Sequence record: PP079210
Direction: 5' to 3' (one strand)
Source of the DNA: Escherichia phage phiYIO1-1
Length of the DNA stretch: 40,520 nt
Part shown: positions 19,947-20,028 of the stretch, piece by piece
Layout: the number at the start of each line of letters is the position of its first letter
How positions within the stretch are numbered: position 1 is the stretch's first letter
Translations under genes and position numbers: made by a program
Notes under the pieces: generated by a model
What the model was told of the DNA's origin: nothing
The model's database searches: none
What the model saw: only the letters and a program-made list of their open reading frames with translations

Positions 19947-19963
19947 ACTATCACTATAGGAAC
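19941..19963 (+). promoter_or_regulatory. Phage RNAP promoter (phi9-equivalent)
   Basis: CTAAACTATCACTATAGGAACAA. Confidence 0.8.
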
Positions 19964-20028
19964 AACACAACTTGAGTGAGTGAACGCATAGCCAGCCGTA
20001 ACGGGAGGGCAGGTTGTTGTGTTTCCTA
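19957..20028 (+). promoter_or_regulatory. Long-range hairpin in the gene 9 leader
   Basis: GGAACAACACAACTTG ... CAGGTTGTTGTGTTTCC: 15 bp or more of near-perfect inverted repeat around a loop of about 35 nt, starting at the transcript 5' end. Confidence 0.5.

Follow-up and report, generated by a model that had tools for sequence, protein, structure and literature searches.

The leader of the gene 10 transcript of bacteriophage T7 (phi10), which is also the leader of the pET vectors and as such the most-used expression leader in biotechnology, begins at nucleotide +1 with a stem-loop (GGGAGACCACAACGGUUUCCC) in which the initial transcribed nucleotides pair with their complement; an A/U-rich spacer and then a strong Shine-Dalgarno sequence come next. 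PMC6146998 (citing Mertens, Remaut & Fiers 1996) credits this stem-loop with raising mRNA abundance and expression, and it was put in ribosome display constructs for that purpose (PMC2373887). In Escherichia coli, mRNAs are protected by 5'-terminal structure, as both RppH and the 5' sensor of RNase E need single-stranded ends (review PMC3997798, citing Emory 1992, Bouvet & Belasco 1992, Arnold 1998). Here we analysed an inverted repeat at the predicted start of the scaffold-gene (gene 9) transcript of Escherichia phage phiYIO1-1, taking as the window the whole 40,520 nucleotides (nt) of record PP079210. A preliminary description had presented the repeat as a stable hairpin that could stabilise the 5' end, be a distinct processing site, or modulate gene 9 translation. 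By analogy with the elements of T7 gene 10 and E. coli ompA, and with moderate confidence, we propose that the repeat is the closing stem of a folded 5' leader that would act as a stabiliser of the scaffold-gene mRNA. Over approximately 2 kb around the repeat, the window shares 97-99% identity with Escherichia phages vB_EcoP_F and K1F and with many further Kayfunavirus genomes, and by this similarity it is a Kayfunavirus (K1F-like; Autographiviridae, Studiervirinae; T7 family).

The leader starting at the phi9 promoter of the window has the same layout as T7 phi10, i.e. a helix that starts at +1 of a late transcript of the phage polymerase and consists of the initial sequence and its complement, then a 13-nt A/U-rich spacer, and then a strong Shine-Dalgarno sequence left untouched by the helix, and it is because of this shared layout that we read the element as a stabiliser domain. 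It differs from T7 phi10 in that its 'loop' of about 44 nt contains two inner hairpins, in that its stem is longer, A-U/G-U rich and interrupted, in starting with GGAAC instead of GGGAG, and in its marginal predicted stability. The phi9 leaders of T7 and T3 occupy the same gap between genes 8 and 9 and likewise have a closing helix starting at +1 (GGGAGACC/GGUCUUCC), which encloses two hairpins and ends approximately 20-30 nt before the Shine-Dalgarno sequence; their interior is unrelated, with a hairpin and a T-arm-like hairpin (UUGGAGU loop) where the window carries the sequence termed module A below. The hairpin hp1 of the ompA 5' untranslated region (UTR) and the papA stem-loop of E. coli (review PMC3997798) resemble the proposed element as sequence-independent helices near the 5' end that leave the ribosome-binding site open, and differ from it as simple hairpins on host mRNAs transcribed by the host polymerase.

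The two arms of the repeat, GGAACAACACAACTTG at 19959-19974 and CAGGTTGTTGTGTTTCC at 20010-20026, are 35 nt apart, and the first G of the 5' arm is the predicted +1 of the promoter at 19942-19964, within the gene 8/gene 9 gap. Presence and placement of the repeat are thus as first described. The match between the arms is imperfect: they form 13-15 pairs, some of them G-U, interrupted by bulges or a 2x2 internal loop, and the repetitive nature of both arms (CAACACAAC / GUUGUUGUG) allows several registers. The term hairpin proved too simple: in the predicted folds the arms close a junction that holds two small inner hairpins around a conserved module.

To place the repeat among its relatives, we compared 70 loci encoding portal homologues and 13 metagenome contigs anchored on the gene 9 start. 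Among Kayfunavirus relatives with portal proteins 95-100% identical, the stretch between GGAAC and CCTAT(T/C)A is hypervariable (loci L001-L021, L052 and L096-L108; homologous to window 19964-20023). At least ten mutually unrelated inserts (A-J, 32-107 nt) without cross-similarity were found at this site, one of which (J) was added by the metagenome scan anchored on the gene 9 start; the same scan yielded no further lineage carrying module A. In GenBank phages, inserts B-J match 200 records; for insert A there are 43, with at least 80% of the query covered in 28 of these. The two ends of every insert are complementary to each other. Duplexes between cognate arms averaged -11.7 kcal/mol, compared to -7.0 kcal/mol for non-cognate arms, and none of 100,000 permutations was as good (p<1e-5).

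The 3' arm moreover tracks the start of the transcript from lineage to lineage: Kayfunavirus arms read GGAAC.../...GTTCC, those of T7, T3, AP10 and Berlinvirus GGGAGAC/GTYTCCC, those of L028 AGAGAGAC.../...GTTTCTCCT (written also AGAGAGACACACGG/CCGTGTGTTTCTCCT), and those of L045 AGAAGAGACC/GGTCTCCTCTT. Nucleotides 1-5 have a pairing probability of 0.9-1.0 in 13 of 16 leaders of other lineages, usually above shuffled sequences. Within a 14-sequence alignment of module A copies, 90% of the cells are paired in the core of the closing helix, designated P1 (19964-19971 with 20016-20023), as opposed to 31-53% when the partner was slid by 1-3 columns, and six of the eight core pairs display compensatory changes on both sides, e.g. 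A-U to G-C between K1F-type and YZ1-type phages. Cognate arms, compensation in P1 and a 3' arm that follows the initial sequence together indicate that structure rather than sequence is conserved among relatives, and on this comparative evidence the closing helix is a selected, subfamily-wide feature of late-gene leaders.

How such a helix might act can be outlined as follows. The arms would form P1 and close a self-contained leader domain (19959-20026) on the phi9 transcript ahead of gene 9. P1 would tie the triphosphorylated transcript start to a segment that lies 13 nt ahead of the Shine-Dalgarno sequence, packing the insert of about 44 nt into a compact junction. The 5' end would become less reachable by RppH and by 5'-end-dependent RNase E, which may give a longer-lived late structural-gene mRNA. 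P1 would also prevent the insert from base-pairing with the A/U-rich spacer or with the ribosome-binding site, which may make gene 9 translation independent of the insert. Of the three roles first put forward, stabilisation of the 5' end is the one best supported, by analogy and by the occurrence of a 5'-proximal helix throughout the subfamily.

Several observations weigh against a stabiliser. The stem of the window phage is weak and A-U/G-U rich; the 68-nt domain (19959-20026) folds with -20.1 kcal/mol at z = -1.58, and longer stretches score z = -1.54 (71 nt) and z = -1.38 (103 nt). A competing fold with the 3' arm paired to the internal GAACGCAU is within 0.2-0.9 kcal/mol of the closing-stem fold, and this alternative pairing is the minimum-energy fold of the full leader, in which nucleotides 1-5 have a pairing probability of 0.32, not above shuffled sequences. 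Protection of the ompA/papA kind needs almost no unpaired 5' nucleotides (no more than some 2-4 nt), a state that applies in part to the window and not to some sister cassettes: in cassettes C, F, G and I, the predicted folds leave 5-8 nt unpaired at the 5' end, and an end of this kind should not block 5'-end-dependent decay under the Belasco rules. Moreover, the phi9 start at G19959 is a prediction from the T7-type consensus, and gene 9 mRNA may derive mostly from upstream promoters, in which case the structure would be internal.

By energy alone the repeat is no better than chance, because its z-scores are around -1.5 and because an equally good 16-nt partner (<= -12.2 kcal/mol) was present 20-60 nt downstream at 11% of the window positions in a whole-window duplex scan. 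With the competing fold so close in energy, the adjective stable in the preliminary description was an overstatement. The repeat exceeds chance solely through the comparative evidence, which is strong. That the repeat is functionless, either complementary by chance or left behind neutrally when promoter-flanked segments recombined, would fit its ordinary energy within this genome and its weak z-scores, and the promoter and the CCTATTAAC block could be mere recombination boundaries. Such an origin leaves unaccounted for the matching ends of ten unrelated inserts, the compensatory changes in P1 and a 3' arm that tracks differing initial sequences across genera; chance is thus disfavoured by the comparative data, and we consider an absence of function very improbable.

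The strongest inverted repeats of the window (16-nt arms, -20 to -23 kcal/mol) lie elsewhere, at approximately 39976, 4861, 25330, 40369, 39466, 2494 and 23413, several of them adjoining phage promoters (39963, 5002, 25358).

Structure prediction gave a divided picture. In the isolated domain the stem forms with an ensemble probability of approximately 0.9, nucleotides 1-4 being paired with a probability of 0.78-0.93, while the full leader is predicted to be bistable, with a pairing probability of about 0.3 for these nucleotides and a stem probability of 0.44 for the leader up to the ATG and of 0.16 with 21 nt of gene 9 added. The alternative pairing joins 19983-19997 (GAACGCAUAGCC) to 20008-20024, frees the 5' end and partly pairs the ribosome-binding region. 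In the P1 conformer the Shine-Dalgarno sequence (20040-20045) is open, the 3' arm ending at 20026.

The two folds might represent the states of a conformational switch that controls gene 9 translation, with the 3' arm bound either to the 5' end (ribosome-binding site open) or to GAACGCAU (ribosome-binding site partly paired). The small energy difference between the folds is consistent with a switch, as are a pairing probability of 0.4-0.86 for the Shine-Dalgarno sequence in the ensemble, which opens once P1 is enforced, and the alternative fold being the minimum-energy structure of L098. Yet the alternative pairing needs the Kayfunavirus-specific 3' arm and is unavailable in the module copies of AP10, Berlinvirus, Klebsiella and Pectobacterium phages, the other nine cassettes are unrelated in sequence, the 3' arm never overlaps the Shine-Dalgarno sequence, and the energy differences are within model error. 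We therefore regard a switch as improbable. Direct control of gene 9 translation by the repeat, as had been suggested, is weakly supported, the 3' arm ending 13 nt before the Shine-Dalgarno sequence and leaving it uncovered.

A Shine-Dalgarno-sequestering riboregulator or RNA thermometer was rejected since the P1 arms lie outside 20040-20045 and only the non-conserved alternative fold touches the ribosome-binding region. An intrinsic terminator, defined by a G+C-rich hairpin with a U run behind it, was also rejected, as 19700-21200 contains no terminator-like sites and the stem is followed by UAUUAACG.

Processing was the third role to be weighed. Intergenic RNA hairpins near promoters serve T7-like phages as RNase III sites, and a cut by RNase III or another endonuclease in transcripts reading through from upstream could create a defined 5' end for gene 9 mRNA. 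In read-through RNA the helix gains three pairs into the promoter (UAGGAA/UUCCUA), and sister cassette F forms a perfect 30-bp helix. On the other hand, the window stem mismatches T7-type RNase III sites in helix length, continuity and sequence family: it consists of 13-15 interrupted pairs that close a junction, as opposed to about two turns of coaxial helix (at least ~20 bp, usually with a defined internal loop), homologous leaders are as short as 8-10 bp, and there is no resemblance to the RNase III-like leaders of this genome with their GACTCAAGGTC / GACTTTAAG-type motifs, from which the repeat had correctly been set apart from the outset. Of the ten RNase III sites mapped in T7, none is known to fall at the junction of genes 8 and 9 (Dunn & Studier 1983). 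The T7 RefSeq annotation omits even known RNase III sites and so does not exclude one at phi9. Overall we hold a processing site to be highly doubtful.

The GACTCAAGGTC / GACTTTAAG-type repeats are shared by the leaders of the promoters at 1926, 5002 and 17130 (1934-1995, 5010-5070 and 17138-17190), resemble T7 RNase III sites, and are probably the three RNase III-like motifs of the preliminary description. Complementarity of the phi9 arms runs 3 nt past +1 into the untranscribed promoter (ATA/TAT; 19956-19958 with 20027-20029), the same ATA/TAT extension is seen at phi10 (20955-20957 with 20989-20991), and other lineages have upstream extensions of their own, e.g. TAAA/TTTA in T3 and TGGT/ACCA in L028. 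Promoter positions -1 to -4 are complementary in 16, 15, 19 and 9 of 27 leaders, respectively, both sides being A/T-rich and the lineages non-independent. In transcripts that read through from upstream, the extended complementarity could play a role.

Closure of the insert by a helix is universal in these leaders, but burial of nucleotide +1 is not, and this leaves room for a reading in which the enclosed module (19972-20015) is the functional unit, as ligand site or decoy, and P1 a mere scaffold. A BLAST search with the interior only located module A in the leaders of at least five other phage groups and, counting phi9, at three leader positions. It is present in the leader at phi10, ahead of the capsid gene, of the Yersinia phage AP10 (Apdecimavirus), of the Berlinvirus phages LPST144 (Salmonella) and NJ2 (Enterobacter) and of Klebsiella phage RCIP0157; likewise at phi10 of Erwinia phage L1 and Pantoea phage SK1 (Elunavirus), where it follows a simple 5' hairpin that is separate from it and is closed by a stem of its own; and behind a promoter upstream of the ssDNA-binding protein gene (gene 2.5) in Pectobacterium phages MA6 and MA1A (Pektosvirus). 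At these loci (L109/L022 for AP10 phi10, L111, L112, L121, L114/L115 and L110/L120) the closing helix is fitted locally. The copies share a core of ~30-44 nt, GUG...GCAUAGCCAGCCGUAACNGGAGGGCAGGU, inside the closing helix, which can be written as GUG(7-9 purine-rich nt)GCAU(A/G)G(C/U)CAGCCGUAACNGGAGGGCAGGU, and differ from the window in the gene served and in the sequence of P1. Identity of the module is approximately 85-95% over 30-44 nt between genera whose portal proteins are only ~65% identical.

RNAalifold predicted for the module A sequences the closing helix P1, a mini-hairpin P2 (GUG/CAU) and a hairpin P3. P2 and P3 are beyond the reach of the covariation test because they are near-invariant in sequence. 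For P3 there are two overlapping options, GCCAGCC pairing with GGAGGGC (72% of cells paired) or with GGCAGGU (83%). The P3 loop showed no covariation with the module's 5' strand; AP10, NJ2 and RCIP0157 differ in the loop and not in the 5' strand. Rfam 15 gave no match at the gathering score in the whole window, and the best hits of a permissive Rfam scan of 19900-20100 (E = 6 and 7.4) were far under threshold. Two degenerate pattern scans of IMG/VR for module A retrieved no phages beyond those already found.

Candidate partners of a functional module would be a host or phage RNA-binding protein, the 30S subunit via an exposed GGAGG, or a defence sensor, and the cassettes of sister phages would then be alternative solutions in an arms race. 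The high identity of the module across genera at three leader positions speaks for such a function, the near-invariant sequence of P2 and P3 suggests sequence-specific recognition, and hypervariability among near-identical genomes is typical of conflict loci. Two other cassettes also speak for it: from Kayfunavirus to Przondovirus the fold of cassette D is maintained by five compensatory pair changes, and the T7/T3-type cassette shows loop-loop covariation (both below). Against it, the partners are candidates only, with no Rfam match and no E. coli similarity, the conservation could stem from recent horizontal transfer, GGAGG is lost in CY1 and YZ1, and many phages manage with a bare hairpin of 8-10 bp, which implies that no insert is essential. 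A module acting in its own right, which would partly overlap with a stabilising leader, is in our view possible though somewhat unlikely. Mimicry of a host sequence by module A was rejected, as a comparison with complete E. coli genomes found no similarity to any of them.

Cassette D is the commonest Kayfunavirus insert and recurs at phi9 of Przondovirus Klebsiella phages (L123-L125, compared in alignment A2 with L005, L009, L011 and L021). Its P1 is re-fitted from GGAACAC/GUGUU to GGGAGAC/GUCUCC, and four pairs of the inner stem are changed on both sides. Because five base pairs have thus changed on both sides, cassette D is a structured module in its own right. The T7/T3-type insert contains the T-arm-like hairpin, with a 5-bp stem and the loop UUNGAGU (T7 phi9 leader L122:116-171; L040). 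L024, L029 and L036 share it at phi9, and L053 has it at phi10. In 6/6 sequences the third base of this loop co-varies with the last loop base of the neighbouring hairpin (G-C, C-G, A-U), which suggests a tertiary contact like that of the tRNA elbow. ARAGORN detected no tRNA in the loci with the T-arm-like module, and a permissive Rfam scan of the T7 phi9 leader returned only a chance C/D-box match (E = 2.1).

Cassette F (L010:4090-4186, L018) is 97 nt long with perfect 30-bp inverted ends, its leader folding at -65.8 kcal/mol, and as judged from these features it would be an obvious RNase III substrate. Palindromic DNA of this kind was reported to trigger Lamassu/DdmABC defence (PMC11707656). 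The bare hairpin of 8-10 bp occupies the same site in cassette H and in AP10, L038, L046 and L048. A literature search with incomplete coverage retrieved no description of such leader cassettes.

The window carries its own copy of the T7 gene 10 element: its phi10 transcript begins with a clean hairpin, GGGAGACC...GGUUUCCC (20958-20988; -16.3 kcal/mol, z = -3.7), the loop of which varies in length among relatives. The annotation of phage ASO2B lists the homologous hairpin as a rho-independent terminator that overlaps the promoter, probably in error. Among phi10 leaders, those of T3, Berlinvirus and Klebsiella phages (L035-L046, L053, L111, L112, L121) share a conserved block of ~45 nt, TTTGAGTGATACACAATGAGAACCAACTCGTTTCAAGTAGTA, immediately behind the 5' hairpin; T7 and the window lack it.

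The features of the phi9 region are listed in Table 1. The promoter motif TCACTATAGG occurs 13 times in the window, compared to 2.6 expected occurrences, and its phi9 copy lies at 19951-19960 within the 23-nt promoter CCTAAACTATCACTATAGGAACA. An N-terminally extended gp9, starting from the in-frame GTG at 20019 behind GGAGG, was rejected because neither frame nor start is preserved in other cassettes.

Table 1. Features around the phi9 leader of the window (positions from the first nucleotide of PP079210).
Feature	Positions	Strand	Basis and remarks
Gene 8 (portal / head-to-tail connector)	18378..19946	+	Open reading frame (ORF); K1F annotation '8.0 head to tail connector'
Gene 8 stop codon	19944-19946	+	ORF
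phi9 phage-RNA-polymerase promoter CCTAAACTATCACTATAGGAACA, 23 nt	19942..19964	+	TCACTATAGG motif; K1F-consensus promoter annotated at the same site in phage ASO2B
5' arm GGAACAACACAACUUG, transcript nt 1-16	19959..19974	+	Sequence, folding, duplex comparison
3' arm CAGGUUGUUGUGUUUCC	20010..20026	+	Sequence, folding, duplex comparison
P1 core, 5' strand AACACAAC	19964..19971	+	RNAalifold; 8 contiguous Watson-Crick pairs with 20016-20023; register common to all family members
P1 core, 3' strand GUUGUGUU	20016..20023	+	RNAalifold; pair counts
Interior module A UUGAGUGAGUGAACGCAUAGCCAGCCGUAACGGGAGGGCAGGUU	19972..20015	+	Conserved; also in phi10 and gene 2.5 leaders of other genera
P2 mini-hairpin (predicted): GUG, purine-rich 8-nt loop, CAU	19976..19989	+	RNAalifold; pairs kept in 13-14/14 sequences
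P3 hairpin (predicted): GCCAGCC with GGAGGGC (20004-20010) or with GGCAGGU (20008-20014)	19991..20014	+	Mutually exclusive options
A/U-rich single-stranded spacer UAUUAACGACUUA, stem to Shine-Dalgarno	20027..20039	+	Conserved 3' of every cassette
Shine-Dalgarno AAGGAG (20040-20045) and gene 9 ATG (20055-20057)	20040..20057	+	Sequence; start of K1F 9.0 (scaffold protein) maps to 20055

The hairpin adds a new instance to a known class of elements, the twist being a loop with a conserved, horizontally shuffled and structured module. In itself the 5' hairpin adds little; it extends what is known of T7 gene 10 to K1F-like phages, and accounts for the mislabelling of such hairpins as terminators by annotation pipelines. 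The T7 phi10 leader appears to be the minimal form of a modular system in which conserved RNA domains, mobile between genes and genera, are housed in the hairpin loop. As a tentative and in our estimate unlikely extension, T7-family late transcripts would carry, inside their 5'-terminal hairpin, interchangeable and horizontally shuffled RNA modules with a specific role beyond passive stabilisation, such as the binding of host or phage factors, the recruitment of ribosomes or a decoy function against host defences. Module A, cassette D and the T-arm-like module of T7/T3 would be examples, each re-fitted to the local start by a co-varying helix. Shuffling of this kind would explain both why near-identical phages differ right here and why distant genera share one module. 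K1F is in use as a therapeutic and engineering chassis, and the modules would also serve as ready-made, naturally insulated 5' UTR parts for phage engineering. If the domains have specific partners, they would constitute a new class of phage cis-acting RNA or RNA decoy.

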